Positions 18,001-55,618 are shown, counted from the stretch's first letter. The stretch is 64,000 nt of DNA from Candidatus Onthoplasma faecipullorum (GCA_019120295.1 DWVI01000004.1:166758-230757); one strand, 5' to 3'. Notes: a model not told the origin generated them from the sequence alone. Made by a program: numbers and translations.

Positions 18001-21000
18001 TAAAAAGTATTTGGGGAGAAATTCAGTATAAATTTGACGACAAACGCAACAGCATAGCCCTTGTTTGGGGTGCAAGAGAGGGCGGAATGGCTCCTGATGT
18101 TATAGCTCAAGAGTTAAATGATAGAGGTATACGTATTGAGGCTATAAATGAGGCAGATTGCTTCTTTGAAATGCTTGAAAAGTATGAATCATTGCGTAAA
18201 GATGTTAATCAAAAAGCCAAGGAAGTTATGCTTAGAGATTATGGTAGTGAAGAACAAATTGAAACATTGAGGCAGCAAATTGCAAAAGATATTCTTTTAG
18301 CATACGACCAGAAAGGGACTCAATCTAAATATGGAAGACTTGTTGAGAAATATACTGCTCAAATAGAAAGTTTGAGACGACAAGTAAAAGAAACACGACA
18401 ACAAAATATTCTTATGAATAATATAGCAGATAGAGCACAAAAGTTGAAAGACTTAAAACTCGGGACTTTCTTAAATGCAACTCAATACAAAAACGATATT
18501 TTTCAAAATTCAATTGAGCGTTTGGCAAATATAAAATATAGAGGGAATTTTAATGCAACGGGCACTCGTAGAATAATGGCTGAATTAAGGCAGTGGTATA
18601 ACAAAGATAACCCTGTTCTTGCAGATAGTTATAGCGAAGATGTTGCGTATATGATTGATACTCTATCGCAAGGCAACAGGAACTATACTACAGAAGAATT
18701 GAGTATGTTGAGAAATGTGATGTCTTATTTTGTAAATTTTGTTGAAAATTATAACAAAGTTTATAGACAAGGTAAATGGATAGATGCAATACCAGAAGCA
18801 GAAAGATATATTGATGTTCTGCATAGAAATAAAGACGTAAAATTAGGAATATTTAATCGTCTTACAAGCAGCACTTATTATCAAACATTTGGCGATCCTA
18901 TGGCGGTTGCAAGACGTATGGATATGTATGAAAATGGTTTTTATACTGAAATGATGTCAGAACTTCGAGATGCGGCAGTAGATGCAGAAATTGCAGAAAT
19001 GGAAGTAAAAACGCCATATAAAAACTTTCTTGACACACACAAGAAATATTTAAGAGAAATTGAAAATACTTTAGTTACTTATCAGGGTGTAGAGATACCA
19101 AAGACACATTTAATCAGTTTATATATGACGCTCAAACGTGAACAAGCACAAGCAGGTTTAGCACAAAATGGTTTTGCTTTTATTGATAATAAGAAAAATA
19201 AAGTTAGAGTGAAAGGTTTTGCTCCTGATGTTGCAAGTGATACCGATTTGCTTACACGTGTTGTTGAAGAACAAGCTAAAATAGACAAGTTACTATCTAA
19301 TACAGATAGAGAATATATTGCTATTTTAGAGTCTGGATATAATCAAGATGCGAAAAAATTAAAAGCCGAAAGAGATATGCAAAGGCTTGGTTTTACAAAT
19401 GCAACCGAAGATTATTATTATCCTATTCGCAGAGGGAATATAGCACGCAATATTGACACATCTGATATTGCTTCAGAGTTAGATAGAGTAAGCAACGCTT
19501 CTTTCAATAAAGATACTGTAAGAGGTGCAAAGCAAGAGCTCTATATAGAGTCTGCAGACGTAGTATATAACAGACATATTAAGGCAGTAACAAAATATGC
19601 TTATCTTTCTCCAGCAATTGAGAACTATAACAGATTGTATAATGTAGACATCTCGGGAAACAGAAATAAGCCAGTAAGTGTGGCAACAGAAAGTGCAAAT
19701 ACTTGGGATAAAGGAAACAAATATTTTAGCAAGCTTATATCCGACATTCAAGGAATACCATCAAGCTCAAGTGAGGGAATGAAATTACTTGGGTTTATCA
19801 GAGGAAGTTATGCAAAGTTTCAATTGGGAGCGAATCCAAAAACTTGGGTAACACAATTATCATCATTATTTGCCTCAACAAGCATCTTAGATACAAATAG
19901 CGTGATTAGAGGCCTAACTATATCAGGAAAAGACGTTGACACGTATTGTTCTCTTGCAAAACTGAGAAATGCTGATAATACTGCAGCAATGGCACAAGGG
20001 TTATTAGATAAAGTTGGCAAGGTTTCAAATGTCTTAATGGCACCTATTGGGAAAATGGATAGATTTGTTATTAGAAAGTTGTTTGGAGCTTGTCAGGTGC
20101 AGGTTGAAAAGAATGGCGGAGCAAAAGTTGGAACAGTCGCAAATAAGACTGAAGCAGGAAAACTATTGCGAAGAGTTATTCTTGAGACGCAACAAAACTC
20201 TATTGTAACTGAGCGTTCTGCAGCTATGAGATCAGGTAATGAAGTTTTAAGAACGGTAACTATGTTCTCTGCCGATAGTATGAAAGCAATGGCAAGGTTG
20301 GTTGATTCCGTTGGAGAATTGACAACTTTAAGAGCAAAATTGAGAGCGACGACTGATGTTGAATTGCAAAACACTTTAAGAAAGCAAATAAAAACTGCTC
20401 AACGTAAACTAAGGAAATCTGCAATGGCAATGGCTTCAACTGCTGCATTTATGGTTGGCGTAGCTCAATTATTTAATTGGCTTTATAATAAAGACAATGA
20501 TGATGAAGAAGATAAGGCTCAAGCATTAGTTGTAGATTTTGTTGGTAACTTATTTGGCGGTTTGCCTTTGATTAGAGATATTTATACAAAATTTACTGAG
20601 GGCTATGATATAGACAGCTATAGTTATTCTGCATTAAACGATTTGCTAAATAGTGCCGTTGATATATTTGACTTAGTAGAAAATTTAGTCTCAGGAAATT
20701 CTTCAAGTCAAGAAATTGCATCAAGTATTAAAAAATTATCATACGCCATTGGTCAAGCTTTTGGCTTCCCTGTAAGAAATATTTATAACGTGCTTTATGG
20801 CTTAACAAAACGTATTAGTCCAGCAACAGCATATAAAATAGACAACACTTTCTATAACAAAAGCTATATTTCTGACTTAAATGCTGCTATAGAAAACGAT
20901 GATGCTGAAATGATTACAACAATTATGAGTATTTTACTAAACGAAAGAATAGGTGGAGAAATTAGCGATAAAGTAATAGAAAGACTTAATCGTCTATATT

Positions 21001-21617
21001 CTTTAGGATATTCTGTTTTGCCTCGCACAGTTGGAACAAGTTTGACTTATAATGGAGAAAGTTTTGCAATAACATCGGCTCAGAGAGAAAGCTTTAAGAA
21101 AATTTATAGTCAGGCAAACAAATATATCGAAAGTATGATCACGGATAGGTCTTTTGGTAAATTGACGGAAGAGCAACAAGCAAAGGCGTTAAAACAGGTT
21201 TATGATGCGTATTATTCAAAAGCTCTTTCTGATACATTGAACGTTGATGCAGAGACAAATCTTTATAAATATTCTCAATTTATCCCTATAAATAAACTAT
21301 CTATTGCATTAACGGGTATTTCAGGGATTGAATCTGATAAAACACTTCAAGGAACGACAATAAGTGGATCTAAAAAGAAAAAAGTGATTACTTATTTATT
21401 AGGACAAAACCTTACAGATGAGCAAAGGTTGCTGATATTATTGCTTCAGGGTTACACAATTCAAGATAGAGAATATAAAAACTATACAGAAGAGCAGGTA
21501 AAGAACAAATTGCTTAAATATATATTAGCTATGAAGATTACACAATCAGAAAAAGAAGATTTATTAAGCAAGATTGGCTATGAGGTTAAAAACGGCAGAG
21601 TGATTATAAACAGATAA
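12042..21617 (+). CDS. giant (3191 aa) multi-domain 'polyvalent' virion protein: Gly/Ala-rich hydrophobic N-terminal region, HExxH zincin, ParB/Srx-like motif, H-Y-E-type ADP-ribosyltransferase-like motifs, C-terminal TM segment
   Basis: A single uninterrupted ORF with RBS AAGGAG. Motifs: 'LLIHELTHVIY' (aa 731-735), 'VDHEGRHRMTALLNAG' (aa ~1094), 'VVYHGTGNN' and 'GQGFYFT' (aa 1206-1235), 'AMASTAAFMVGVAQLF' (aa ~2795). Confidence 0.7.
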   Translation: MATLSSIKQQFNTRTGAASLLTENQIQTAATRREEEEEAKKNNGGFFGGIGYVLEKIGLGFLSGIEGIWDYTAGGLAKLFGADDWAEQQFANDWVDYNHADEWYNPSDGWKVVGDVAGGIGTSLPAIAGVAAAGAITVASGGTLSPVAAGLISASVAGLGAAGRATKEAYEQTGELGGKEFGYGALVGITEGTVEGLSAGIGAGTGAVIKNITKSFGKEVAKSTARQTFTKTIFKSFVGEAFEEGLSEMLTPVWKRLTYDPNAKNATFQEIGYAALVGGLSGAIMGGFDVSVRNVGSYTRGNTIVNQSKADGVLSTAQQISEYETNNHTGYESFEAVQSLYNELQSSLTKTNGQISTMRQKMLVGMLERANTSATFTPFVARSAENIVNNAELIAQRLSSYGYTDANGNPITFTAEQIRNGVDVNKRGSFANALKNNDILRTLAVADATGQLTMDTAKFREATLMGQRLSSQADLNRFIETATDSELRAVSERLGIEDWQTITNEEFQNKITEFVENGGVETYRQESLIIKEAQSISLESAQRLGRVVRLTQDGTYRFRSANADIAIVKNGDSYRIFDYESGRLSNELTRAELNRVIREINNQNEQAASAVKEQLEQREQQENRYKIQAQEIDTFARENIKDYAKLNESNKSMVRAVIRQARASGIAEADVLSYARVSAHTGLNIIFSKRLCKVGTDSNGDLYADGYFDTNNNRIVVNPETKRTHEQLLIHELTHVIYRTQDGKLILERGVRNMSDAEKQSIIKRYSEAGRGKAIELMDEINAHYAEGMLTNKNLIEKLVADKPTIKDRIVNFFKRSTETYSEDTKLTKAAKSLFSRYKKLFDSFSAVNQQSNSVEVNNSASNRMALANDGENGYNNQKGVKNGEENAETTENQQTSRQTNVRDNRERRSLSVFNDNGTVRQLSEIIKDKPKEERIGNLFTEIYTKSVNETQDNLIWHAKNEDVKIYFAKSRGSGNVYYFDGENLIVNENITEKNLVDILNIEKPIQRNVDTNKVAHISNERWNRFIDFEPKTYLTRIPIQQFLDMTTENYVEQRQLNARSTQMSKKIAASDIKNTAGEFMYLKIDLKNNKVVDHEGRHRMTALLNAGNAYADVFVIPVNDVGADYYGNIEVTGQFNSNKYNLGLVRAQSKKFADSIERVFRIDDGNIRYALPETDSNGNALTDKQREYFSNSKVVDENGNLLVVYHGTGNNEFTIFDIKKSKATGMLGQGFYFTKNQEEASSKYAKRNGRVISAYLNLEKPLYVDLVHKSSIINKLRDEFGGKFDVDAYLYNARYRDRVDTSRMLSLIQQQGYDGIINKQKGYYVAFNSNQIKETTNIRPTLNNDIRYALDNSKDAKDLVAIHNTSEAKLLQSIELGGLAMPSIAIVRSDIGHEGFGNISLILKSDAIDPQKNYDNKVYSADAYSPRFPQIAYSFNGKELRALADKMDTSVSMLEANDFAEGNTRERMIDNLKNNEYFIKHYLKEFGIKAEIVYKPAEYSNAIYLKEDVKNFLLKDYSFEELMNSDKVQQELQNAVDKAKEKETREFKKNILQHSYEKLIRSLDDARNEKFIYDILEKDYNNDKLIAQGKAEQVVNAYETERKTKEKLNGDKQFNDYAKSSVDKVLDKKYLRNNKDYYTNSGNPRSFEALHDDYTAENAVRIMKEQGGKNSEGGNVFGFGIGEIRAALSKIYYSIEEMHQDEYRLQTITDESSKLYEECNDDLHNIASGLSERIKTGNFLEEHDIALNAIFDVISKTKTNEQAKRLIKRDYRLDITDTEITDIRKLADKVAELPVKYFEAKPERVVNFNEIVKAFVPINTNKRILDFLREQGIDVQIYSESTPTRAELIKTLSDDIRFALQTNENEDSRAIGGLSRGQRAKFVANNTHLKVYSKAEAAEVINSIIDERLVLEDKYGSLSGKSKAEVVDMLFRQLNSAKEGYRSSVALNIADYLIENTVLNDMYVYDNADAMNDLTVLRSYMHKVDLKSIWGEIQYKFDDKRNSIALVWGAREGGMAPDVIAQELNDRGIRIEAINEADCFFEMLEKYESLRKDVNQKAKEVMLRDYGSEEQIETLRQQIAKDILLAYDQKGTQSKYGRLVEKYTAQIESLRRQVKETRQQNILMNNIADRAQKLKDLKLGTFLNATQYKNDIFQNSIERLANIKYRGNFNATGTRRIMAELRQWYNKDNPVLADSYSEDVAYMIDTLSQGNRNYTTEELSMLRNVMSYFVNFVENYNKVYRQGKWIDAIPEAERYIDVLHRNKDVKLGIFNRLTSSTYYQTFGDPMAVARRMDMYENGFYTEMMSELRDAAVDAEIAEMEVKTPYKNFLDTHKKYLREIENTLVTYQGVEIPKTHLISLYMTLKREQAQAGLAQNGFAFIDNKKNKVRVKGFAPDVASDTDLLTRVVEEQAKIDKLLSNTDREYIAILESGYNQDAKKLKAERDMQRLGFTNATEDYYYPIRRGNIARNIDTSDIASELDRVSNASFNKDTVRGAKQELYIESADVVYNRHIKAVTKYAYLSPAIENYNRLYNVDISGNRNKPVSVATESANTWDKGNKYFSKLISDIQGIPSSSSEGMKLLGFIRGSYAKFQLGANPKTWVTQLSSLFASTSILDTNSVIRGLTISGKDVDTYCSLAKLRNADNTAAMAQGLLDKVGKVSNVLMAPIGKMDRFVIRKLFGACQVQVEKNGGAKVGTVANKTEAGKLLRRVILETQQNSIVTERSAAMRSGNEVLRTVTMFSADSMKAMARLVDSVGELTTLRAKLRATTDVELQNTLRKQIKTAQRKLRKSAMAMASTAAFMVGVAQLFNWLYNKDNDDEEDKAQALVVDFVGNLFGGLPLIRDIYTKFTEGYDIDSYSYSALNDLLNSAVDIFDLVENLVSGNSSSQEIASSIKKLSYAIGQAFGFPVRNIYNVLYGLTKRISPATAYKIDNTFYNKSYISDLNAAIENDDAEMITTIMSILLNERIGGEISDKVIERLNRLYSLGYSVLPRTVGTSLTYNGESFAITSAQRESFKKIYSQANKYIESMITDRSFGKLTEEQQAKALKQVYDAYYSKALSDTLNVDAETNLYKYSQFIPINKLSIALTGISGIESDKTLQGTTISGSKKKKVITYLLGQNLTDEQRLLILLLQGYTIQDREYKNYTEEQVKNKLLKYILAMKITQSEKEDLLSKIGYEVKNGRVIINR

Positions 21618-28046: not shown

Positions 28047-30422
28047 ATGTCATTAAAAAAGTTAGTAAACATAACGCCAGCAGAACTTAAGGCTAAGGGT
28101 GTTGTTTCTCTTGCAGATAGACCAAATGTTACGGCATCTTACGGAACAGGGGGGCTATCTCCAACACAACTTAAACTTTGGTTTGACCAACTGGCAACAT
28201 TTTTAGCTAAAAAGCTTAATATGATACAAGATACTTTAAGCGGGGAAGATGCAGCAAGTTATTTAAAACTTGATTTAAGTGGGTTGTATCCCGAGCTTGA
28301 GGGAGAAAATTTTAGTTATTCTTTACAAGATCTATGCAATTCTTTTATAGATGGGAAATTTGCAAGTTTTCTAAAATTATATGAATCTGCATCTGCAAGC
28401 GATTTAAAAAATCTGCAAACTATTATAAACGGAATTGCTCAAAATATAAGCGACGAGAATGAAGCGTTGCAAGAATTTAAAGCGTTACTTTCAAGCAAAA
28501 ATGGTGCGGCAAATATCGGCTTGCCAGATATTTACGATACCGAAACAGGTAAAAAACTGTCAGATTTTATTAGTGATATATTCAATTGTAATCTTGCAGC
28601 AAAAATTGTAATAGAAACTTACGGTTTTGCAACTTCTAACAAGACCGCTAAAGTAAACAAAACGCTCCAAACATATATCAACGAAGTTACTTCCGCTCTG
28701 CAGGCTCAAAATAGCTCTGTGCTGCTTGAAATGATAAATGATAGATATACTAAAGCTGAGACTGATACAAATATTTCACAGTCAATAACCACTGCAGTAA
28801 ATAACCATAACACAAACTCGTCAGCTCATAGTGCAATTATGGCTGAAAAATTTGACAAAGCAAACGTTATGCCTGAATTTGTTGGCGAAGATGTGAATAA
28901 TTCGGCTAAAGTAGCTTCAGCCGCCGCCTTAAAGCAAGTGATAGATGATATAAATGCAAGTATAGAATCTGTTGATGGAAAAGCAGATGTATCTCTTAAA
29001 AACGTAACTTATAACTCTACAACGGGTGTTATTATCTTCACGAAAACAAACGGGGAGACTATAACCTATGACTTGCCAAGTGAAAAAATATTAAAAAGTG
29101 GTGCAAGTTACTATGAGAGTTCAACAAAGAAGTTGCACTTAGTTTTAATGGACGATAGCGAAATTGTAATTGACGTTTCTAATCTTGTTGACGAATATTT
29201 TGGAGACGATGTTACAATAGAGTCTTATTCTGAAAATGGGCAAAAACATTTCCGTATAAAAACAACATATAAAAACACGCTTGACGGCTATGGAACAACC
29301 CTTGAAGACCACGCAGAAGAACTTGACAGGTTAGAGACAGCAAAAATAAACAAAACTGATATTGTTGATAACCTTACTTCAGACGTGTCTGATAAGCCAG
29401 TTTCTGCAAAACAGGCAAAGATATTAAAAGACGAAATAAGTTCTATAGATGGCGTGCTTAATGGAGCGTTTTGTGGAGCTGAATATAATCAAACTACAGG
29501 CAGTCTTATTCTGCACAAAACTGATGGTTCTACCACAACAATCAATTTTCCTCTTGAAAGCTTTGTTCAAGACGCCTCATTTAACACAGAAACAAATGTT
29601 GTTACACTTGTTGTAAAAAATGGGCAATCAGTATCTTTTGACTTATCAGCCTTAATTGACTATTACTATGGAGACGGTTCCACAATTGAAGTATATGACG
29701 ATCCTGAGGATAACTACAAACACAAAATAAGAGTAAAATCAGACTTTTTAAATCAAGTCAATACGGATATTTCTGCACTTGAAACAAGAATGGATGCTGC
29801 AGAAGAAGCAATAAGTTATCTTGAGAAAATTGATGAGTATGGCTCAATAGGTATTGCAGATGGCGAAACTATTACAATGGATATGGAAACAGGCGACTTA
29901 AGTGCTCGCAAATTGAAAATGCCTGATGGAACTATTGTTAGTATTCTTCCAATAAGTAAAACTAGTTATGATGCACTTACTACAAAAGATGCTAACACTT
30001 TATATATTATTGATGATAGTGGAAGGTTTGTTCTTGCATTTGGAAGTAAAACCTTGTTTGCAGGCGGTGTCAATGACACGGAAACAAGCGAATCAATTAC
30101 ATTTAGATTTATTACTCAGTCAGCATACGAGGGACTTGCAACCAAAGATAGCTCAAAATTATACATCATAAATAAAAATGGAAGCCTTGCATTTGCTTTT
30201 GGTAGTTTGTATCTTGATACCAATAGCGAGCTTATTACAGAAATGCAGACGAGTATAGACGAACTTGAAGCTGCAGTAGAGAAAAATAATAACTATATAG
30301 CATTATCTCATAGCACATTATCAGGCGAATCTAAAGTTATTTTATTTAGTAGTCTTTCCGCAACAGGACTTACTTTAACAAGTGGAACATTGCTATCGTC
30401 AGAGAGGTGCTTGCAGTGTTAA
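28047..30422 (+). CDS. tail fibre/spike protein with internally duplicated modules
   Basis: Two ~95-aa paralogous modules ('YNSTTGVIIFTKTNGETITYDLP...' and 'YNQTTGSLILHKTDGSTTTINFP...'). Two 'S.Y..L.TKD...LYII' fibre-type motifs. Confidence 0.6.
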   Translation: MSLKKLVNITPAELKAKGVVSLADRPNVTASYGTGGLSPTQLKLWFDQLATFLAKKLNMIQDTLSGEDAASYLKLDLSGLYPELEGENFSYSLQDLCNSFIDGKFASFLKLYESASASDLKNLQTIINGIAQNISDENEALQEFKALLSSKNGAANIGLPDIYDTETGKKLSDFISDIFNCNLAAKIVIETYGFATSNKTAKVNKTLQTYINEVTSALQAQNSSVLLEMINDRYTKAETDTNISQSITTAVNNHNTNSSAHSAIMAEKFDKANVMPEFVGEDVNNSAKVASAAALKQVIDDINASIESVDGKADVSLKNVTYNSTTGVIIFTKTNGETITYDLPSEKILKSGASYYESSTKKLHLVLMDDSEIVIDVSNLVDEYFGDDVTIESYSENGQKHFRIKTTYKNTLDGYGTTLEDHAEELDRLETAKINKTDIVDNLTSDVSDKPVSAKQAKILKDEISSIDGVLNGAFCGAEYNQTTGSLILHKTDGSTTTINFPLESFVQDASFNTETNVVTLVVKNGQSVSFDLSALIDYYYGDGSTIEVYDDPEDNYKHKIRVKSDFLNQVNTDISALETRMDAAEEAISYLEKIDEYGSIGIADGETITMDMETGDLSARKLKMPDGTIVSILPISKTSYDALTTKDANTLYIIDDSGRFVLAFGSKTLFAGGVNDTETSESITFRFITQSAYEGLATKDSSKLYIINKNGSLAFAFGSLYLDTNSELITEMQTSIDELEAAVEKNNNYIALSHSTLSGESKVILFSSLSATGLTLTSGTLLSSERCLQC

Positions 30423-30448
30423 AATATAATGAGCGTTCTCCAAAAGAG

Positions 30449-30817
30449 ATGATGGTTATAACAAAAGCAAAAGATTTGTTGGAACATAGCTTCAATATGA
30501 CGGCGAACACTGAAAGATTTCCTAAAAAATACAGATTTTCAATCGGTACAAGAATAGAAAATATATCAATAGAGATTTATGAAAATCTTGTAAGGGCAAA
30601 TGAGTATAATCTTACAGATCCAACAGAAAAAGCAAAACGTCTACAGTGCCAACAACAAAGTATTGTGTTGTGTAAATTACTAAATACTCTTATAGAGCTT
30701 GCTTATAAAATAAAATCAATAAAAATTTCTTCAAAGTCAGTTGAATATTGGTGTGGACTTGTTGTTGAAGTAAAACGAATGTCTGCAGCTTGGAGAAATA
30801 ACGATAAAAAACAATAA
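30449..30817 (+). CDS. avd: DGR accessory variability determinant (Avd, four-helix-bundle family)
   Basis: ~122 aa from the ATG at 30449. 'FPKKYRFSIGTRIENISIEIYENLVRAN' is typical of the Avd / 23S-IVS four-helix-bundle family. Sits directly upstream of TR and RT. Confidence 0.7.
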   Translation: MMVITKAKDLLEHSFNMTANTERFPKKYRFSIGTRIENISIEIYENLVRANEYNLTDPTEKAKRLQCQQQSIVLCKLLNTLIELAYKIKSIKISSKSVEYWCGLVVEVKRMSAAWRNNDKKQ

Positions 30818-30839
30818 GAATTTAGGGTATGTTCTGCTC

Positions 30840-30942
30840 CTCCTAACTCGTCGAACTCTCACAACGTTCGCAATGTCAACTCGAACGGTAACCTGAACAA
30901 CAACAATGCGTATAACGGTAACAACGGCGTGCGTCCGCTTTG
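30840..30942 (+). repeat. DGR template repeat (TR), 103 nt
   Basis: Non-coding. Has 30 adenines and is AAC/AAT-rich when read in the VR frame. Aligns without gaps to VR1 and VR2, with differences almost exclusively at TR adenines. Confidence 0.9.
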
Positions 30943-31094
30943 GTGGGTTATAGTCAGACCGAGTAGCGTAAAGCGAAAGCAGCACTCCACCAACAAAGGA
31001 GGACATATCCTTTCCGTAAGGATAAATACAAGATTACCGACACAAGCACATTATTTTATAAGGTGTAAGTTATTAGCGGTAAGGAGTCGAATAT
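30840..31094 (+). ncRNA. DGR template RNA (TR plus spacer up to the RT start)
   Basis: By analogy with the Bordetella BPP-1 DGR, where TR and the downstream spacer form the RT template/primer RNA. A local hairpin TATCCTT/AAGGATA lies at 31006-31024. Confidence 0.45.
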
Positions 31095-32150
31095 ATGCAG
31101 GAATATGAAAAAATTTATAATTTTGTGAGTTTATATAAAGCTTATAAAAAGGCTCGTTGTGGAAAACGCTGGAAAGAAGCAGCTATAAAATTTGAAATAA
31201 ACTTAATGGAAGCATTATTGCTTTTAAGTGAGCAATTAAAAAATAAAACCTATAGATTGTCTGAATATAATGTTTTCAAAGTTTATGAGCCTAAAGAAAG
31301 AATTGTTATGAGCAATAGTTATAAAGATAAGGTTGTGCAACATTCAATATGCGATAATGTTTTAGAGCCAATATTAACAAAAAGTTTTATTTATGATAAC
31401 TATGCTTCACAGGTTGGAAAGGGCACAGACTTAGGCTTGAATAGACTAAAAGAGTTTATGCGAAAATACTATTCAATCAATAAGTCAGCTGACGGCTGGG
31501 TGCTTAAGTGTGATATTAGCAAGTATTTTTACAACATTGACCACAACATTTTGAAAAAATTATTGAGAAAACATATATCCTGTCAAGATACATTATGGCT
31601 GTTAGATATGATAATAGACAGCACAGAGGGTGTTGGGATACCAATAGGAAATCAATCTTCTCAATTATTTGCTTTACTTTATTTAAACGGACTTGATCAT
31701 TATATAAAAGAGAAATTGCAGATAAAGTTTTACGGAAGATATATGGATGATTTTTATTTAATACATAAAGATAAAAATTATTTAAAATATTGCCTCCAAA
31801 AAATTAAAGAAAAAGTTGAAGAACTTGGACTTACATTAAATTCTAAAACATCTATTTCTCCTCTTAAAAATGGAATTGATTTTCTTGGTTTTCACACTTA
31901 TTTAACAGAAAGCGGAAAGGTTATAAGAAAACTTAGACGCTCTTCAAAGACAAATATGCGTAGACGGCTTAAAAAGTATAAAAGTCTGAATACGCAAGGG
32001 AGATTGCCAATGAAACGTATTGAGTGCTCCTATAACAGTTGGAAAGGACACGCAAAACGTGGAAATTGCTATCATTTAATACAAAAAATGGATAGCTTAT
32101 ATAATAGTCTTTTCAAAAAGGAGGAAAATAAAAAATGTCTCAAACGTTAG
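31095..32150 (+). CDS. DGR reverse transcriptase
   Basis: 'IGNQSSQLFALLYLN' matches the DGR-RT signature (I/L)GxxxSQ. 'GRYMDDF' matches the YxDD catalytic box. 351 aa; adjacent to TR. Confidence 0.9.
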   Translation: MQEYEKIYNFVSLYKAYKKARCGKRWKEAAIKFEINLMEALLLLSEQLKNKTYRLSEYNVFKVYEPKERIVMSNSYKDKVVQHSICDNVLEPILTKSFIYDNYASQVGKGTDLGLNRLKEFMRKYYSINKSADGWVLKCDISKYFYNIDHNILKKLLRKHISCQDTLWLLDMIIDSTEGVGIPIGNQSSQLFALLYLNGLDHYIKEKLQIKFYGRYMDDFYLIHKDKNYLKYCLQKIKEKVEELGLTLNSKTSISPLKNGIDFLGFHTYLTESGKVIRKLRRSSKTNMRRRLKKYKSLNTQGRLPMKRIECSYNSWKGHAKRGNCYHLIQKMDSLYNSLFKKEENKKCLKR

Positions 32151-33892
32151 GAAGTTTGCCTATAGGAGCAAAAGTAAAAGACGCAAACACAAAATTCTTA
32201 GGCGAACCTATTGTTTGGCTTAAGGCGGATAAAGATCATACAGATTATCCTACAAATAGCACAACTCTTATCACAGAGAAGATTATAGCTCTAAGAGCTT
32301 TTGATGCTAAAGAGCCTAACAATACAGATTCAAATAGACAAAGTTATGGAAATAACAAATATTCAGTTTCAAATATTGACCAATGGTTAAACTCTGATGC
32401 AGCAGCAGGGCAATGGTATACTGCAAAACACGAAGCTGATCAGGCTCCAACTACTGTAAGCACTCACGTATCCGCAAACACATACACAGAAGATGCAGGC
32501 TTTTTAAACGGTTTTTCAAGTTATTTCAAATCTCAGTTGTTAGAAACAACACTAAAGGTTGCTCTTAATACTGTAACAGATGGCGGAGATTACGAATCTA
32601 TAACTCGTAAAGTATTCTTAGCTTCACGTGCAGAAACTTTTGGTGCTGCAGAAAATAGCGTTATGGAGGGAAGTTTACTATCAATCTTCTCAGAGAACAC
32701 AAATGCCTGTAGAATTGCTTATGTAACGCAAGCGTGCGTGGATGATAGTGATTATTCTTCTGACCCTGCCGCTGGTGCAGCGTGGTATTGGTGGTTAAGA
32801 ACTCCTAACTCGTCGATCTCTCGCTACGTTCGCTATGTCTTCTCGGGCGGTTACCTGTTCTACAGCTATGCGTTTAACGGTTTCTACGGCGTGCGTCCGC
32901 TTTGTAACCTGTCATCTGATATTCTGGTGTCTGATACTGTTGACGAAGACGGTTGCTATGTTATTCAATTGCCGCCTGAGGCTCCTGATACAATAAATGT
33001 AAAAACGCCTATATATTGCGATCCTGATTATAACACAGGAGGAATAGAGGGAGGTAAGGCAGAAGTGTCTTGGAGTGCTGGTTCAAATTGTAAAACATAC
33101 AAATTGGAACGCTCTATAAACGGCGGAGAATTTTACGAAATTTATGTCGGAGACAACTTAGCTTACGAAGACGTCATTACAGACAACATAAATACGGTTC
33201 AGTATAGGGTTGCTGGCTTGTCAGGAACGACTTCAACAAGCTATACGACTTCAAGTGTTGTTGTGGTGCAGGACAATTATCCACCATTTATTTCAGGAGA
33301 TAACACTGCATTTGGAGATGTCGCAACAAGAATTAAATATAATTACACAGTGTATGATGGCGATGATGTAAATGTAACAGTTAAAGAATATGTGAATACT
33401 ACTTTAATCAAAACATATACAGCGACAGGTTCTGCAAATAACGTATTTGAAATTGACCTTGAAACGTGGAACGGACTTAGCACAGGAGATAATTATATAA
33501 AAATTGAAGTTGAAGATGATGACGGCTCAACTGCCACTCAGACAAAGCACTTTAATAAAATTGGCGGAGTTATTGAATTTGTCTATGAGCCTTTTGGTTC
33601 GTCAATATCAGCAGTTCCTAAGGCAATAAATGTTAAATTAGATTTAAAAATGCCTTTAGATGCATCAATTGAAGTCTTAGCAACTAATAATGCAAATGAT
33701 ACTCAACCTGTATGGGATGATATTACTACTGCTGCATTAAGCGGAACAAATCACGTATTTTCAAATACTGCAAAACAACAAGGTGTAACTTATTATAATG
33801 TAAAAATTAAAGTAAAAATCAATAGGAACGGTGCAGACGGCGAAATCAAGTTATATGGTATGAAATGTCAACTTGACTGCAGTTTGACTTAA
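32135..33892 (+). CDS. DGR target protein (receptor-binding candidate): N-terminal domain, CLec-like VR-bearing segment, then FN3/Ig-like C-terminal domains
   Basis: Contains VR1. 'AWYWWLRTP....YGVRPL' is a C-type-lectin-fold-like VR scaffold. 'KAEVSWSAGSNCKTYKLERSINGGEFYEIY...VQYRVAG' is FN3-like. The start overlaps the RT stop. Confidence 0.8.
   Translation: MSQTLGSLPIGAKVKDANTKFLGEPIVWLKADKDHTDYPTNSTTLITEKIIALRAFDAKEPNNTDSNRQSYGNNKYSVSNIDQWLNSDAAAGQWYTAKHEADQAPTTVSTHVSANTYTEDAGFLNGFSSYFKSQLLETTLKVALNTVTDGGDYESITRKVFLASRAETFGAAENSVMEGSLLSIFSENTNACRIAYVTQACVDDSDYSSDPAAGAAWYWWLRTPNSSISRYVRYVFSGGYLFYSYAFNGFYGVRPLCNLSSDILVSDTVDEDGCYVIQLPPEAPDTINVKTPIYCDPDYNTGGIEGGKAEVSWSAGSNCKTYKLERSINGGEFYEIYVGDNLAYEDVITDNINTVQYRVAGLSGTTSTSYTTSSVVVVQDNYPPFISGDNTAFGDVATRIKYNYTVYDGDDVNVTVKEYVNTTLIKTYTATGSANNVFEIDLETWNGLSTGDNYIKIEVEDDDGSTATQTKHFNKIGGVIEFVYEPFGSSISAVPKAINVKLDLKMPLDASIEVLATNNANDTQPVWDDITTAALSGTNHVFSNTAKQQGVTYYNVKIKVKINRNGADGEIKLYGMKCQLDCSLT
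32802..32904 (+). repeat. DGR variable repeat VR1
   Basis: 18 differences from TR over 103 nt, all at TR adenines. A 23-nt A-free 3' end is identical to TR (IMH-like). Confidence 0.9.
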
Positions 33893-33903
33893 GGGGAGGC
33901 GAT

Positions 33904-34359
33904 ATGAAAATGGAAATCAAGTTATTAAATAACAAAAAAGGTTTTATTTTAACTCGTCAACCTGAAGTAGTGGAAGATAAACTTTATATAACATTCGCAA
34001 ATGCTCCTAAAAATGCAACAGCAATTTTTGAAAACGCAAACGATTCACTATATAGGTTATTACAAGATAATTGTTGCGAAATTCCTGAAAATTTTTTGAT
34101 AGGGGAAATTAAAATAACCGTTGCAATTTTAAATGGCGAAATAAACTCTCCAAAATGGGAGTGTGAGGGCATTAAGGCGTCAAAAACAAAAGATGGAAAT
34201 ATTCTTATTGCTCCAAATGATATGAATTTGCCTGAGAAAATGGTAGAAATTCAACTTGAAATGCAAGAGATACAAAACAATTTAAGCATACTATCGAAAA
34301 ACTATTCGGAGCTTGAAACTAAATTGACCAAGCTGCTTGAGGGATACGACATAACATAA
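33904..34359 (+). CDS. hypothetical phage protein
   Basis: RBS GGGGAGG; C-terminal coiled coil. Confidence 0.55.
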   Translation: MKMEIKLLNNKKGFILTRQPEVVEDKLYITFANAPKNATAIFENANDSLYRLLQDNCCEIPENFLIGEIKITVAILNGEINSPKWECEGIKASKTKDGNILIAPNDMNLPEKMVEIQLEMQEIQNNLSILSKNYSELETKLTKLLEGYDIT

Positions 34360-34374
34360 GGAGGTAAATAAGTT

Positions 34375-35058
34375 ATGAAGAAAAAAGTATCTTTAAGTAT
34401 CTTGGCTTGCTTTGCAATCATTTTATGCTTTGGAGTGTTTTTGGGAACTTCTGCTCTAAATTCACAAACAAGCATATTAACTGTATCTGCAGAGACAGTT
34501 GTTTCAACAAGCGAAAACATAGATGAAGAGCAAGAAATTATTCCTGAAGAGACAGAAGTGGAAAATAATACTTTTTTTGGTAGAGTTTGGGAATGGGTTG
34601 TCGCTAATAAAACTGAACTTATTTCTGCTCTTGGAAATATTATTCTTGCAGTTTTATTTTTAATAAACTATATCAATTCAAAAAAGAAGCTTACCAAGAT
34701 AACAAGTGGGGTTTTGACCACCTCAAGTTCTCAAGCAGATGTTGTAAACGTTGTAAATAAACTTATTGACGGATATAATAAACTTGAAGATATTACAACT
34801 AAATATGCTAACACTGAAGATGAAAAATATAAGGCGGTAGCAAAGTCTATTGTGCAAACAAAAGCTATTCTTGAAATTTTGATTACTGTATACGCTAACT
34901 CTAAAAATATTCCACAAGGCGTAAAAGATTTAATCAACTTAAAATATGCAGACGCCTTGAAGCTGATAGGAAATGACGAACAACTAAAACAAACTTTAGA
35001 TAACGAAATGGAAAAAGAAAACGCTGAGGAACAATCAGGCACGCAAACGGAGGAATAA
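34375..35058 (+). CDS. membrane/secreted protein (N-terminal signal or TM helix plus an internal TM helix)
   Basis: 'MKKKVSLSILACFAIILCFGVFLG' and 'ISALGNIILAVLFLINYI'; RBS AAGGAGG. Confidence 0.55.
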   Translation: MKKKVSLSILACFAIILCFGVFLGTSALNSQTSILTVSAETVVSTSENIDEEQEIIPEETEVENNTFFGRVWEWVVANKTELISALGNIILAVLFLINYINSKKKLTKITSGVLTTSSSQADVVNVVNKLIDGYNKLEDITTKYANTEDEKYKAVAKSIVQTKAILEILITVYANSKNIPQGVKDLINLKYADALKLIGNDEQLKQTLDNEMEKENAEEQSGTQTEE

Positions 35059-35059
35059 A

Positions 35060-35464
35060 ATGAAAAATTCCACCAAAGGAAAGATTTGCAAAATTTCTGC
35101 ACTTTGTATAGACGTAGCGGCTCCTTTAGCAGCAACAATCTCTCAATTCCCTGTATGGGTTGATAGAAGCTCTTCTGCAACAATCTCGGGTTTATTCTTA
35201 GTATTTGCCTTTTTGTCTGCTATTCCATTTATGAAACAAATTAAAGCATATTTAAAATCGCCGTCAGCTTGGTCTATGTGGTGCATCTTATTTGTTCTTT
35301 TAATAGCTCTCAGAAACATTATAGACGAAATGGTTATTATTTGTTTGGTTGGTCTTATAGCAAATGCTTGCGGTGCAGGGCTTCATAAAATTGGGGAAAA
35401 TATTGAAAGTAAGCCCGATCCTGAAACTCCTGAAGACTCTGAAAATAATGGAAGTGAGGTGTGA
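35060..35464 (+). CDS. multi-pass small membrane protein (holin candidate)
   Basis: 134 aa with ~4 hydrophobic helices and a charged acidic C-terminus; located in the late-operon tail. Confidence 0.35.
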   Translation: MKNSTKGKICKISALCIDVAAPLAATISQFPVWVDRSSSATISGLFLVFAFLSAIPFMKQIKAYLKSPSAWSMWCILFVLLIALRNIIDEMVIICLVGLIANACGAGLHKIGENIESKPDPETPEDSENNGSEV

Positions 35465-35467
35465 TAA

Positions 35468-36550
35468 ATGGAACCTATAAAAAATGATAACAGAAAAGAT
35501 GATCCTGTAGAAAGACTTGGTAAAACACAAAAGAGAGTGGTAAAGTCGTTATTTAATAATATGGCTTTAATAATTGGTATGTTTATCATTATTGTTGTCA
35601 TAGTTGTCTTTACAACTGATGTTAAAATATCAAGTGCTTTACATTGGGCTGAAATTGGTCTCACGTTCTTTATTCTTCTGTTTTGCTCGTATTCTATGTA
35701 TGTGAATTTTGTTGGAAGTGGAACTCGTGCAGGAAGGGCAACTAAAATATATATAGAAACTCTTGAAAAATATGAGACTATCAAGAAAAAAATAATTGAT
35801 AACAAGCATCAAAACAGAATTGGAGAATTTTGCAGATATTATATATCGGAAGAGCTGAAAAATACTAAAAATTCAATTCTGTCAGAGGTTGGAATAGATT
35901 TTGAAGATTATACAGAAAAATATATTGGAAAAGACGAGGAAACTTTGCGGACAGACGAAAGCTTGTCTAAAGCACAAATTGCGGCTATTTGCAAAGCAAA
36001 CTCTATTCAGCCAGTAAAATTAACTCCTGAAATGATTTTTAAAAGGGGTAGAGGCAACCACAGAAGAAGTCCGTTGGGAATCAAGCCTGAAACACGCAAA
36101 AATATTGCCTATGGAACAAAATTTATCTATACCTGTGTAACCTCACTACTTACAGGCGTAATTTTATTTGATGTTATTATCGATCCATCTTGGGCGACCT
36201 TTGCTGCTTGTTGCCTGAAAGTCTTATTGGTTGTTTTAAACGGTTTCTTTGGCTATAAAATGGGCTATGAGAATATAACAGTGCATACTGTTGATTATAT
36301 GAGCGACCAAATAGACTTAATGCAGCAATTAGAACAATATGTCGAAGCTCATCCTCAAATTGTTAAAATCGAAGATAGTGTAGCGGTTGAGGCTTCAACT
36401 GAAGAAACGCCAGCTCGAGAAGAACAAGAGATTTTAGTGGAAGAAGTTCCACAGGATAAAACAACTAAAGAGGAAGAAGAAAAACCAAGTGAAGCGGTAA
36501 AAGAAAATACAAAATTAGAATTGTTAGAAATAAAAAATATTGAAGAATAA
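35468..36550 (+). CDS. membrane protein (about 4 TM helices) with acidic C-terminal tail
   Basis: Hydrophobic segments 'MALIIGMFIIIVVIVVF', 'IGLTFFILLFCSYSMYV', 'TSLLTGVILFDVII' and 'CCLKVLLVVLNGFF'. Confidence 0.55.
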   Translation: MEPIKNDNRKDDPVERLGKTQKRVVKSLFNNMALIIGMFIIIVVIVVFTTDVKISSALHWAEIGLTFFILLFCSYSMYVNFVGSGTRAGRATKIYIETLEKYETIKKKIIDNKHQNRIGEFCRYYISEELKNTKNSILSEVGIDFEDYTEKYIGKDEETLRTDESLSKAQIAAICKANSIQPVKLTPEMIFKRGRGNHRRSPLGIKPETRKNIAYGTKFIYTCVTSLLTGVILFDVIIDPSWATFAACCLKVLLVVLNGFFGYKMGYENITVHTVDYMSDQIDLMQQLEQYVEAHPQIVKIEDSVAVEASTEETPAREEQEILVEEVPQDKTTKEEEEKPSEAVKENTKLELLEIKNIEE

Positions 36551-36551
36551 T

Positions 36552-36585
36552 AAAAAATAAGGTGCACTAAACACCTTATTTTTTT
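36552..36585. terminator. bidirectional rho-independent terminator
   Basis: AATAAGGTG (36556-36564) pairs with CACCTTATT (36572-36580). It is flanked by an A-run on one side and a T-run on the other. Confidence 0.7.
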
Positions 36586-36586
36586 G

Positions 36587-36810
36587 AGGTTACAAAGCGG
36601 ACGCACGCCGTAGCGACCGTAAAATGCATAGTTGCTGCTCAGGCTACCGTTCGAGTAGACAAGGCGAACGATGCGAGAGGTCGACGAGCTAGGAGTTCTT
36701 AACCACCAATACCACGCTGCACCAGCGGCAGGGTCAGAAGAATAATCACTATCATCCACGCACGCTTGCGTTACATAAGCAATTCTACAGGCATTTGTGT
36801 TCTCTGAGAA
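36587..36810 (-). pseudogene. truncated inverted duplicate of the DGR target gene (115 bp upstream flank, VR2, 6 bp downstream)
   Basis: 36696-36810 is the exact reverse complement of 32687-32801. An in-frame TAA lies immediately upstream. There is no ATG and no RBS, only an internal GTG. Past the duplicate, the frame runs antisense into the 35468-36550 gene. Confidence 0.7.
36593..36695 (-). repeat. DGR variable repeat VR2 (second, remote, inverted)
   Basis: The reverse complement aligns without gaps to TR. There are 16 differences at TR adenines plus one G-to-A. It differs from VR1 at many adenine-templated positions. Confidence 0.85.
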
Positions 36811-36812
36811 AA

Positions 36813-37238
36813 TTAACTGTTATTTTTGTCTTGTTTTTGATTATCTTCAGCTATTTGAGTGCCTATATATGCTCTCATTTTTGCGTCTTGAAGCTGTTTT
36901 TCTTTATTTTCCTGCATAATTTTGTGTAAAACTTGCATTTGTTCAGGAGATGTTTCCTCTTTAACTATTGATTTGCCTGTTTTTTCTAAATATTTTTGCT
37001 CAATCTTATCAGGGTCTGCATATTTAATTATTAGTATTTCAGCAATTATACTTAAAATTGTCATTACAGCGAACACGATTCCAACAACTCCACCAGTAAC
37101 GCCGCAGGCTAAAACAATAAACGACGGAATATTAAAAGCTATCCAAGTGAAAATAAAACCAACGATTCCACTCTTCATTAGGGAAGTAAACGTCGCAAGT
37201 TTGCTCTCATATCTGTTAAATTCTATTCTTAAACGCAT
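36813..37238 (-). CDS. small membrane protein (two TM helices plus charged coiled C-terminal tail); moron-like gene opposite to the phage late genes
   Basis: AAGGAG 6 nt upstream of the ATG. Hydrophobic segments 'GIVGFIFTWIAFNIPSFIVLACGVTGGVVGIVFAVMTILSIIAEILII'. The stop codon is 2 nt from the VR2-bearing duplicate. Confidence 0.65.
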   Translation of the reverse strand: MRLRIEFNRYESKLATFTSLMKSGIVGFIFTWIAFNIPSFIVLACGVTGGVVGIVFAVMTILSIIAEILIIKYADPDKIEQKYLEKTGKSIVKEETSPEQMQVLHKIMQENKEKQLQDAKMRAYIGTQIAEDNQKQDKNNS

Positions 37239-37434: not shown

Positions 37435-37463
37435 AGGATAACACAATTATCAAAAAATGTCAA
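37435..37463 (-). promoter_or_regulatory. sigma-70/sigA-type promoter for the structured leader
   Basis: On the minus strand, TTGACA (37463-37458), a 17-nt spacer, then TATCCT (37440-37435). The predicted start is at the base of the 37339-37429 hairpin. Confidence 0.4.
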
Positions 37464-37543
37464 ACAATTTAAAAAATTCAAAAACAAAGGGTATTGAAAT
37501 TTTGAAAATTATTTTATATAATTCAAGTGTGAGGTATCAAAAG

Positions 37544-38599
37544 ATGAAAGGAATGAGATATACAGCAAGACAAAAACGGAAAGCTTTACAGCTGTGGCAA
37601 GATGAAAATGAAGATATTTTCAAGGTGTGCAGCAGGTTCAAGTGCACAGAACGTTCTCTTTGGAGGTGGAAAGCATTATATGACGGAACTTTAGAGAGTT
37701 TAGAAAATAAATCGTCAAGACCTTTAACTCCGCATCCAAATTCCCATACAATTGAGGAAAAGACGGCTATTATAAATCTTTTTAAGAAAAAGCCTGATAT
37801 TTCATATAATGAGGCTTTTGGTATTTTGCGAGCCAAAAATGCGTATAAAAGGAGTTATGGAGGGTTTTATAACTTTATTTTAAAAAACAATATCCGACCG
37901 CATAAGTTAGTGGAAAAGTATATTCCTCAGCCTTATGAAACGCCTGAAATGCTTGGTGTAAAATGGCAAATGGACGTTAAATATGTTCCTGTAGTGTGCT
38001 ATAAAGGTGTAATGATACATTATGACGATAATAAATATTATCAATACACAATGATAGACGAAGCAACAAGAGAAAGATTTTTATATCCATACAAAGAGCA
38101 TAACATACAATCTACGTTAGATTTTGTTAAACGAGCAATTGCGTATTTTGGTTATGCTCCAGCTATTATTCAAACAGACAACGGCTCTGAATTTACCAAT
38201 ATTAAAAAACCAAACCAAAAAGAGCCTAAGATTCACGCCTTAGATATATTATTAAATAAATTAAATATAAGACATCAACTAATAAGAGCATATACTCCAA
38301 GACAAAACGGCAAAGTAGAACGCTCTCATAGAAGCGATCAGGAAAGTTTTTATAATCATTTAAAATTTAAAACTTATAATGAACTGAAAAAGAAAATGAT
38401 GGCGTGGAACATTACATACAACAATCGTCCGCACAGCTCGTTAAGAAATAGAGAGGGTAAACGAGTATGGTGGTCGCCACTGGAGAAAAGGGCAGACTTA
38501 CTCAATCTTCTTGAAGAGAAGAAAGAAGAATTTGACAAAGTTAGATTTTTAAAGAAAGAAAAATGTAAAACTATTCGGCAAATTTATAAAGTTGCGTAG
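37544..38599 (+). CDS. DDE transposase, integrase-core (rve) family with N-terminal HTH
   Basis: 'WQMDVKYV', 'IQTDNGSEFT' and 'YTPRQNGKVERSHRS' form the D, D, E triad context. ATG at 37544 follows GAGGT. Confidence 0.8.
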   Translation: MKGMRYTARQKRKALQLWQDENEDIFKVCSRFKCTERSLWRWKALYDGTLESLENKSSRPLTPHPNSHTIEEKTAIINLFKKKPDISYNEAFGILRAKNAYKRSYGGFYNFILKNNIRPHKLVEKYIPQPYETPEMLGVKWQMDVKYVPVVCYKGVMIHYDDNKYYQYTMIDEATRERFLYPYKEHNIQSTLDFVKRAIAYFGYAPAIIQTDNGSEFTNIKKPNQKEPKIHALDILLNKLNIRHQLIRAYTPRQNGKVERSHRSDQESFYNHLKFKTYNELKKKMMAWNITYNNRPHSSLRNREGKRVWWSPLEKRADLLNLLEEKKEEFDKVRFLKKEKCKTIRQIYKVA

Positions 38600-55616: not shown

Positions 55617-55618
55617 AT

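Follow-up and report, generated by a model that had tools for sequence, protein, structure and literature searches.

Does a prophage of Candidatus Onthoplasma faecipullorum carry a diversity-generating retroelement (DGR) that is complete and at work in nature, and what is a second, oppositely oriented copy of its variable repeat (VR) doing nearby? Both questions are raised by a stretch of 64,000 nucleotides (GCA_019120295.1 DWVI01000004.1:166758-230757, hereafter the window), in which an avd gene, a template repeat (TR), a reverse transcriptase (RT) gene and a target gene with a first variable repeat (VR1) follow one another. Our analysis indicates that the window very likely holds a functional DGR of the avd-TR-RT type in a prophage of a bacterium with a GC content of 34%, together with a silent second repeat (VR2) and an invertible segment. 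A complete DGR had been proposed in the initial annotation, made from the sequence alone, and all defining parts are present and pass the tests run.

Adenine-directed diversification of VR1 in a tentaclin gene

TR, 30840..30942, plus strand: template repeat with 30 adenines in 103 nt and 14 AAY codons
VR1, 32802..32904, plus strand: actively diversified variable repeat, coding for residues 224-256 of the target
Initiation of mutagenic homing (IMH)-like 3' end, 32887..32910, plus strand: 18 nt, GC-rich, adenine-free and common to TR, followed by the VR-specific TAACCT
Target gene (tentaclin), 32135..33892, plus strand: 585 aa, with a DUF6273 domain and three immunoglobulin-like (Ig)/Fn3 domains

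A direct repeat of 103 nt, gap-free and 83% identical, was returned by a repeat finder and pairs TR (30840-30942) with VR1 (32802-32904). In a per-base tally, all 18 mismatches lie at TR adenines (14 A>T and 4 A>G), in agreement with the earlier count; with 30 adenines among 103 nt, the hypergeometric probability of such a placement (18/18) is 1.6e-12. Translated in the frame of the target, TR reads PNSSNSHNVRNVNSNGNLNNNNAYNGNNGVRPL, with 14 AAC/AAT codons. Every adenine occupies codon position 1 or 2 and none position 3, so mutagenesis of TR cannot create a stop codon, and the earlier description of TR as a string of AAC/AAT codons unable to yield stops holds. An identical adenine-free tail had also been noted at the 3' ends; it exists, at a length of 18 nt (CGGCGTGCGTCCGCTTTG) and not 23, for the last 23 nt of TR include AACAAC, where VR1 differs at three positions. 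Beyond the shared 18 nt, the VRs and TR part ways, continuing as TAACCT... and GTGGGT..., respectively. In DGRs, homing gets its direction from an IMH at the VR 3' end that differs from the IMH* at TR; by its likeness to the DGR of phage BPP-1, this 3' end of VR1 would serve as the IMH. No VR copies were found in the window beyond VR1 and the minus-strand VR2 at 36593-36695.

Natural variation of the repeat was followed by exact-sequence look-ups, which returned 20 contigs with an identical RT protein and further contigs with neighbouring genes; selected contigs are referred to below by labels beginning with L and proteins by labels beginning with P. TR is identical in all contigs having the identical RT. 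On this 100% identical RT and TR, public assemblies hold 15 DNA alleles of the VR that is linked to the Ig part of the target, and 232 of their 235 substitutions relative to TR fall at adenines (117 A>G, 93 A>T and 22 A>C). All 30 TR adenines are substituted at least once, and none of the 15 alleles contains a stop. One contig, L006, differs from the window at 20 positions in 3461 nt, 20/20 of them inside VR1, and further VR variants occur among the protein-level alleles of the target's 90% cluster. Because 15 VR1 alleles with changes almost confined to adenines occur on an identical RT and TR, in L006 with no change outside VR1, the DGR is active in nature, and the polymorphism anticipated at 32802-32904 was found by comparison between assemblies. 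The phage was found solely in the ENA/Logan/NCBI set: scans of IMG/VR with orientation junction patterns, and of IMG/VR and JGI metagenomes with the VR 3' end, gave no matches.

The target gene starts at ATG 32135, preceded by AGGAGG, and the RT open reading frame (ORF) overlaps it over 16 nt, as the translational overlap described earlier implies. A DUF6273 domain covers residues 41-260 (nt 32255-32914; Pfam E 1.6e-32), and the 33 residues encoded by VR1 (224-256) lie at the end of this N-terminal domain. It is followed at residues ~305-585 by three beta-sandwiches in the AlphaFold2 (AF2) model, with tandem FnIII matches. Tentaclins carry an N-terminal lectin-like DUF6273 domain with a VR hairpin, followed by one to four Ig-like domains, and are described as having a variable domain of C-type lectin fold and a seven-residue consensus in the C-terminal Ig domain (PMC10743442), and their type examples come from the human-gut phages nd4 and nd12 (Baykov et al. 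2023, PMC10743442). The target is a member of this published class, with an N-terminal lectin-like DUF6273 domain containing the VR and Ig-like domains behind it, and is 41% identical to target 1 of nd12 over 97% of its length (range for nd4 and nd12, 39-41%). More than 1800 protein clusters match it at E<1e-10. It also matches PHROG 10993, 'Hoc-like head decoration', with 450 bits; this label derives from the annotation of Faecalibacterium phages, and the topology of T4 Hoc differs from that of tentaclins (PMC10743442). The initial annotation had placed the target in a tail-fibre region: it is indeed encoded directly downstream of a tail-fibre gene, but it is a tentaclin or 'Hoc-like' protein and not a tail fibre proper.

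When the N-terminal domain was modelled alone (pLDDT 73, pTM 0.80), the sole significant Foldseek match in the PDB was 9qa6, the DUF6273 domain of the Thomasclavelia ramosa IgA peptidase (E 1e-12, TMq 0.66). The corresponding sequence match of the target's DUF6273 domain has E 1e-10, and the sequence and fold matches hint that the domain can bind host glycoproteins or immunoglobulin. By analogy with the family, the target would act as an adhesin whose variable hairpin forms the ligand-binding face on an Ig stalk, with the bacterial surface or host mucus or immune components as candidate ligands.

The inverted repeat, its invertible segment and the silent VR2

IR-L, 32683..32910, plus strand: left arm, with 119 nt of the target gene, VR1 and 6 nt
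IR-R, 36587..36814, minus strand: right arm, outside the VR one base different from IR-L
VR2, 36593..36695, minus strand: silent (fossil) variable repeat within IR-R
Invertible 3.7-kb segment, 32911..36586, no strand: Ig/Fn3 part of the tentaclin gene and four ORFs
Four segment ORFs, 33904-34359, 34375-35058, 35060-35464 and 35468-36550: 151, 227, 134 and 360 aa
Bidirectional terminator-like hairpin, 36552..36584, no strand: between the 360-aa ORF and VR2; DNA fold -13.1 kcal/mol, z -4.3
141-aa membrane-protein ORF, 36813..37238, minus strand: runs into IR-R; lies ahead of the Ig part in orientation B

The repeat finder also joined 32683-32910 with 36587-36814 as an inverted repeat of 228 nt, and the segment between the two arms occurs in both orientations in public contigs. 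In orientation A, that of the window, the tentaclin gene is intact. Orientation B splits the gene: the lectin-like domain is left with a short out-of-context tail, and the Ig part is moved behind the 141-aa ORF. Junctions of orientation B were found in seven contigs from seven samples, produced by several assemblers, and were reached via truncated members of the target's protein cluster. The left junction is present in L118 (a 34.8-kb contig containing the whole inverted segment), L119 and L120, in which the tail fibre, avd, RT, the target's N-terminal domain with its VR and the terminator-side sequence are followed, on the opposite strand, by ORFs of 361, 134, 227 and 149 aa and by the Ig part of the target; the RT-proximal product in this orientation has 315 aa (P0154). 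The right junction is present in L112, L115, L116 and L117, which run from the transposase through the 141-aa ORF and a repeat with its VR into the Ig part and ORFs of 151/149 and 227 aa. Together, the two sets represent the two reciprocal junctions expected from inverting 32911-36586. A pattern for the left junction of orientation B missed L118-L120 owing to divergence of the anchor sequence. The segment assembled as a contig of its own, ~4 kb long and bounded by the repeats, in 12 of 13 assemblies.

One pair of contigs bears on the crossover. L112 and L113 have opposite orientations and are 100% identical from the transposase through the 141-aa ORF to the repeat and 99.8% identical from the repeat to the Ig part, with four differences that are exactly those between VR1 and VR2 of L113. 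Because these four differences match, L112 is the L113 strain in the other orientation, with a crossover in the last 29 nt of the repeat. That the inversion itself is real is highly probable.

Whether it also serves a purpose is another matter, and we consider it unlikely that the inversion is programmed. Such a switch would have two settings, one giving a stalked tentaclin and the other a lectin-like protein standing alone (or an OFF state), with the silent VR as a movable archived allele. In phages Mu and P1, inversion of the G (Gin) and C (Cin) segments, respectively, gives a tail-fibre protein a different C-terminal part, and the Mu G segment provides a constant N-terminal part with alternative C-termini. 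The layout at this locus resembles the G segment: as in Mu, P1 and intragenic invertons (PMC10028968), a segment flanked by inverted repeats lies inside a virion-protein gene, and its inversion alters the C-terminal part. The RT-proximal product of orientation B contains DUF6273 only, with the VR at the 3' end of its gene, like target 2 of nd4 and nd12; the Ig-linked allele of L112 is the terminator-linked allele of the near-identical L113, which puts the crossover into the final 29 nt, at the IMH-like end, as opposed to the 134-nt identical stretch upstream; and in the orientation-B lineage L115-L117 an ATG stands at the repeat boundary. However, Mu and P1 have short recombinase sites, an adjacent invertase gene and functional proteins in both orientations, whereas the arms here, at 228 nt, have a length typical of RecA substrates rather than invertase sites, the window ORFs scanned include no invertase gene, and orientation B resembles a disrupted gene whose tail is antisense to another gene and varies between lineages. 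In addition, the inverted repeat is absent from 41 related species-level loci, and the crossover mapping comes from a single contig. It is doubtful that two systems are stacked on one adhesin gene, in such a way that the DGR rewrites the tip and inversion between the VR repeats toggles stalked and truncated (or OFF) forms, with crossover at the IMH end and an archived, swappable silent VR. A full-text literature search on DGRs and invertible segments returned no title or abstract that describes a VR-bearing inverted repeat or the inversion of a target gene, and both appear to be undescribed.

It is quite improbable that the contigs in orientation B are assembly chimeras across the 228-nt repeat and that the phage exists solely in orientation A. 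All data are short-read assemblies, many contigs end at the repeat, and the ends of L028 and L114 look chimeric. Nevertheless, both reciprocal junctions are present in seven contigs from seven samples and different assemblers; L116 is a k=141 contig, with k exceeding the 119-nt identical stretch; and L118 (34.8 kb) contains the whole inverted segment. The VR alleles point the same way, one being common to the three left-junction contigs and another to three of the four right-junction contigs, which fits real lineages.

Some contigs show mixed features at the repeat. L114 has orientation A, yet it opens with 38 nt from the end of the 141-aa ORF, and in L028 the 5' half of the terminator-linked, minus-strand VR equals the VR1 allele of L027, which comes from a different sample; the mixed ends of L028 and L114 stem either from faulty assembly at the repeat or from populations in which A and B are mixed. 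L003 (ERZ1478590 scaffold_23) has a 28-nt deletion over the 5' edge of VR1 (window 32786-32813), leaving ORFs of 277 and 307 aa, and a 43-nt deletion at the junction of the 141-aa ORF and IR-R (~36815-36857); both lie at repeat edges and are either real or assembly errors. The four segment ORFs and the 141-aa ORF gave no Pfam or PHROG match. By eye, several segment ORFs look like membrane proteins, with hydrophobic stretches, and inversion places them under the control of the strand of the 141-aa ORF.

The label VR1 had implied a second target. A second VR does exist, but it is a silent fragment and not a gene. The copy begins right after the stop codon of the 141-aa ORF, in another frame; its own frame has a stop 4 codons upstream of the repeat, neither an ATG nor a Shine-Dalgarno sequence, and no stop before the terminator. 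IR-R ends 6 nt past the TR homology and is followed by the terminator-like hairpin, which it shares with the convergent 360-aa ORF. From TR, VR2 differs by 17 mismatches, 16 at adenines and one a synonymous G>A. Its sequence is the same in 11 assemblies whose Ig-linked VRs differ, the VR2 allele of L113 is two transitions apart, one of them at a non-adenine site, and the terminator-linked VR of L118-L120 has 6 non-adenine mismatches to its own, slightly different TR. Since retrohoming resets non-adenine positions to TR and yet non-adenine mismatches persist, VR2 has long remained un-rewritten. It is a non-coding fossil of an earlier VR allele.

There is very little probability that VR2 is instead a second functional target, in a two-target DGR like those of nd4 and nd12. 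Its 16 adenine-site substitutions and shared IMH-like end would suit such a role, gene callers predict a 134-aa ORF with a DUF6273 match at this place, and two-target cassettes occur in related phages. Against this, the frame spans only DUF6273 profile positions 127-171, the last 45 of 172, lacks an ATG and a Shine-Dalgarno sequence, has an in-frame stop just upstream and reads through the terminator into the antisense strand of another gene, and one VR2 allele persists in 11 assemblies while VR1 varies. VR2 is a partial duplicate and not a diverged second target, because its flanks are 100% identical to target 1; the idea that it is a remnant of an nd12-type upstream target 2 was rejected for the same identity of flanks. 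A possible origin of the silent copy is reverse transcription of target mRNA starting at the IMH region; its end 6 nt past the TR homology would then be accounted for.

Its silence is probably due to an incomplete IMH, with just 6 nt of VR-specific downstream sequence. The opposite orientation perhaps contributes, and lack of selection may do so as well; in a reconstituted BPP-1 DGR in E. coli, editing of targets anti-directional to replication was 7.6- to 44-fold lower (PMC12875486). The want of a hairpin was considered as a cause and dropped, VR2 being the copy that has one.

Exchange between repeats has left several traces. In L113, VR1 (6668-6770) and that contig's own VR2 show 4 differences, at adenine sites only, and L011 differs from L010 solely at two 5' positions, where L011 equals VR2. 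A single retrohoming event does not account for these patterns, nor does simple repeated retrohoming for the likeness in L113; the likeness of VR1 and VR2 suggests gene conversion or inversion-mediated exchange, or recombination between phages. A second TR allele is found in L118 (6706-6808), a ~96% identical phage, with 8 changes including H>N, N>T and Y>R codons, and the full-length targets P0001 and P0160 carry VRs templated by it, recognizable by a 'GTL...AR' signature. In L118 and L114, the terminator-linked VRs correspond to the 'wrong' TR type, implying that lineages have recombined or that VRs have been swapped.

Reverse transcriptase, Avd and spacer RNA

avd (accessory variability determinant), 30416..30817, plus strand: alternative start at ATG 30449
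Structured DGR RNA spacer, 30943..31094, plus strand: 152 nt between TR and RT
DGR reverse transcriptase, 31095..32150, plus strand: 351 aa

By sequence comparison, the RT belongs with DGR RTs. Its top match among PDB sequences is the Bordetella phage bRT 8ub7 (E 1.1e-42, residues 6-336), followed by a group II intron RT at 3.4e-10 and retron-type RTs at 1e-8, and it also matches Pfam RVT_1 and PHROG 1423 (447 bits). The motifs IGNQSSQ (residues 184-190, aligned to IGSLTSQ of bRT) and YMDD (residues 216-219) were located as first reported and fit the DGR signature of [I/V]GxxxSQ in motif 4 plus YMDD. An RT of a group II intron, retron or defence (DRT/Abi) system beside an ordinary duplication has next to no probability: NCBIfam, which is without a DGR RT model, does give a group II intron maturase (104 bits) and Drt3a (63 bits, sub-threshold) as its best matches, but these lie far under cut-offs of 200-550 bits, bRT is ahead of the group II match by 30 orders of magnitude, and the adenine-only mismatches, Avd and population-level adenine mutagenesis are specific to DGRs. 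The grouping with group II intron or retron RTs that had been named as grounds for abandoning the DGR reading was thus not seen.

An Avd-like protein had been reported ahead of TR, and the ORF that ends at 30817 matches PHROG 3206, 'Avd protein of DGR', at E 8.7e-25. There are two candidate starts for avd, GTG 30416, preceded by the Shine-Dalgarno sequence GAGAGG, and ATG 30449; in identical contigs, gene callers choose the 133-aa form.

The spacer between TR and RT has a conserved structure, which was examined in an alignment of the same region from 16 related loci. A duplex, P1, pairs 30940-30947 (TTGGTGGG, the last TR bases plus the next five) with 30986-30993 (TCCACCAA), and the nearly invariant CAAAGGAGG follows at 30994-31002, directly after the P1 partner strand. 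Further helices are formed by 30998-31000/31008-31010, 31013-31015/31020-31022, 31034-31039/31077-31082 and 31047-31052/31060-31065. Of the cells in the consensus structure, 92% pair, compared with 33-47% after sliding of the partners, and compensatory changes occur in 17 of the 24 pairs. Covariation scores 0.49, whereas the slid controls reach 0.12 at most, and 0/500 shuffles attain the observed values. P1 (7-8 bp) covaries among relatives as GGTGG/CCACC, GATGG/CCATC and GATAG/CTATC. Folded whole, TR and spacer were no more stable than shuffles (z -0.68), and the support for the structure is therefore covariation. Part of the spacer (30949-31065) matches the Rfam family RT-2, one of the 'RT motifs' near bacterial RT genes (PMC5737381), at 34.5 bits (E 2e-6), below the gathering score of 40; at the gathering threshold, Rfam gave no RT-family matches in 11 related loci.

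In BPP-1, the priming adenosine is positioned by 7 bp that the spacer forms with the 3' end of TR (bioRxiv 10.1101/2023.10.23.563531), and by analogy P1 is likely the template-primer duplex here. The BPP-1 model also includes an Avd-binding stem-loop in the RNA downstream of TR, to which the present helices would correspond by analogy at most. A duplex like the 'cPRT stop' of BPP-1, between the region upstream of TR and the spacer end, reached -18.3 kcal/mol (z -1.95) in the window alone; it was dropped as unsupported among relatives, with a mean z of -0.18 over 30 loci.

Put together, the parts suggest the following course. TR and the structured spacer would be transcribed, and RT and Avd would bind the resulting TR-spacer RNA, as in BPP-1 biochemistry, with cDNA synthesis primed in cis near the TR 3' end, again as in BPP-1. 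RT with Avd would copy TR into cDNA, misincorporating opposite adenines, and the cDNA would replace VR1 in the gene just downstream of RT, with the VR-specific 3' sequence giving the direction. The variable tip is presumably kept at a distance from the virion by the three Ig/Fn3 domains, and the outcome would be a phage population with differing ligand-binding tips. The two VR copies would in addition act as inverted repeats between which the segment flips.

Several points weigh against this combined reading of a working DGR, a silent VR2 and an invertible segment. VR1 diversification was compared between consensus contigs of different samples and not within reads. The Avd ORF has Avd models as its sole Pfam and NCBIfam matches, and both fall below cut-off (bAvd PF22296, 36.7 bits against 40; DivGenRetAVD, 37.7 bits against 80). 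No stable hairpin lies 3' of VR1 (z +0.7 to -1.2), unlike in BPP-1. In the Foldseek search with the pLDDT 73 model, the C-type lectins 3par, 1bv4 and 8umo appear at E 1.4-3. Orientation B is known from short-read assemblies across the repeat, and the window ORFs scanned include no recombinase but the rve transposase, the left end of the phage lying outside the window. Lastly, there is the adenine-only likeness of VR1 to VR2 in L113.

Related systems, prophage context and meaning

In a survey of related RTs with one genome per species, 453 loci were found and the best 80 inspected. About 35 of these 80, all Clostridia-type with an RT identity of 55-81%, share a layout in which TR lies 150-350 nt ahead of RT and one adenine-biased VR follows 660-770 nt beyond the RT stop; more distant loci (~50% RT identity) have one or two VRs upstream. 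The nearest RT loci in GTDB species representatives are 81% identical and belong to uncultured Clostridia, Anaerocaecibacter muris and Christensenella metagenome-assembled genomes, while the best GenBank phage matches are nd12 and nd4, with the gene order found here. The order avd-TR-RT-target had been called less usual; it is in fact the rule in the ~35 related loci and also occurs in nd4 and nd12. Because these phages and the other relatives match, the DGR core is an ordinary member of the published tentaclin-type DGR class of gut Clostridia phages, and its gene order is normal for that class.

The correspondence with nd4 and nd12 extends to avd, TR, an RT of 351 aa and a target that overlaps RT by 16 nt, to the targets themselves (569-585 aa, an N-terminal DUF6273 domain with the VR and three Ig-like domains, 39-41% identity) and to TRs rich in AAC/AAT. 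Unlike the window, these two phages encode, upstream of avd, a true second target that consists of DUF6273 only; no such gene occurs here, where a silent, inverted fragment of target 1 lies downstream together with an invertible segment. Both are small myoviruses, whereas the backbone here differs, with no sheath or tape-measure gene recognised.

BPP-1 shares a homologous RT (E 1e-42, full length), Avd, adenine-specific mutagenesis, a GC-rich and adenine-free 3' end common to TR and VR, and, by analogy, a structured spacer RNA that includes a duplex of the TR 3' end with the spacer. It differs in having its target upstream of RT, where the present one is downstream; its VR is C-terminal in the lectin fold of Mtd, whereas the VR here lies mid-protein in a DUF6273 domain; and the hairpin that follows its VR has no counterpart.

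The DGRs of Faecalibacterium phages likewise belong to gut Clostridia prophages with Ig-repeat targets annotated as Hoc-like (Cornuault 2018, PMC5883640; PMC11792537), and their VRs lie where DUF6273 ends C-terminally. The target's C-terminal part is matched by FP_Brigit and FP_Mushu, at just 28-32% identity, and Mushu is a transposable phage, as the prophage here apparently is too; no inverted VR copy or inversion has been reported from these phages.

In the silent-cassette antigenic variation of Neisseria pilE/pilS, non-expressed partial copies of the variable region stand beside the expressed gene. The locus described here resembles that system in its silent partial copy with an alternative variable region and in the hint of exchange with the expressed copy. 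Unlike pilE/pilS, it has a single silent copy, the exchange was deduced from one contig pair, and the main source of variation is reverse transcription and not recombination.

The prophage reaches its right end with the following gene.

rve-type DDE transposase, 37457..38599, plus strand: Pfam rve and rve_3, PHROG transposase; prophage right end

Upstream of the DGR lie small and large terminase subunits, a portal, a 3191-aa polyvalent protein, head proteins, an 889-aa ORF and a 791-aa tail-fibre protein with a Phage_tail_C domain. No sheath, tube or tape-measure genes were recognised in the structural module and no endolysin in the window. Past the transposase, host genes encode a methyltransferase, an M1 peptidase, DnaB_2/DnaI-like proteins, CysS, a 2930-aa Big_2 protein and RelA/SpoT. 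In other samples (loci L012-L021), the transposase end adjoins NusG/SecE/L33, a radical-SAM gene or small ORFs; because it stands beside different host genes across samples, this suggests that the prophage is transposable and Mu-like.

Three other loci deserve mention. The 3191-aa ORF (12042-21617, plus strand), beside the portal and a 722-aa ORF, has predicted ART-PolyVal (ADP-ribosyltransferase) and PBECR5 nuclease domains, by which it is classed as a phage 'polyvalent protein'. A DUF5131/radical-SAM-like ORF lies in the early region of the prophage (2038-2709, plus strand). In the host region, a 2930-aa ORF with an N-terminal Big_2 domain (46824-55616, plus strand) is followed by an S26/S24-type signal-peptidase-like ORF (55619-56254), and 46824-56254 is probably a giant surface protein locus.

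For DGR biology, this locus is informative on several counts. Public assemblies already show the DGR at work, with 15 alleles, clean flanks and use of 30/30 adenines. Nature has supplied a control in the silent copy, which shares the 119 nt upstream, the GC-rich end and 6 more identical bases, yet is un-rewritten; it thereby bears on what, besides TR homology, marks a DNA site as a DGR target. Candidate marks are what follows the VR downstream and how the site is oriented to replication (PMC12875486). Duplication of a VR can make a DGR target structurally unstable or switchable, and because of the inversion such loci are fragmented in metagenome assemblies. If the switch were programmed, Mu-type inversion and BPP-1-type retrohoming, the two classic phage host-range diversifiers, would be joined in one gene.

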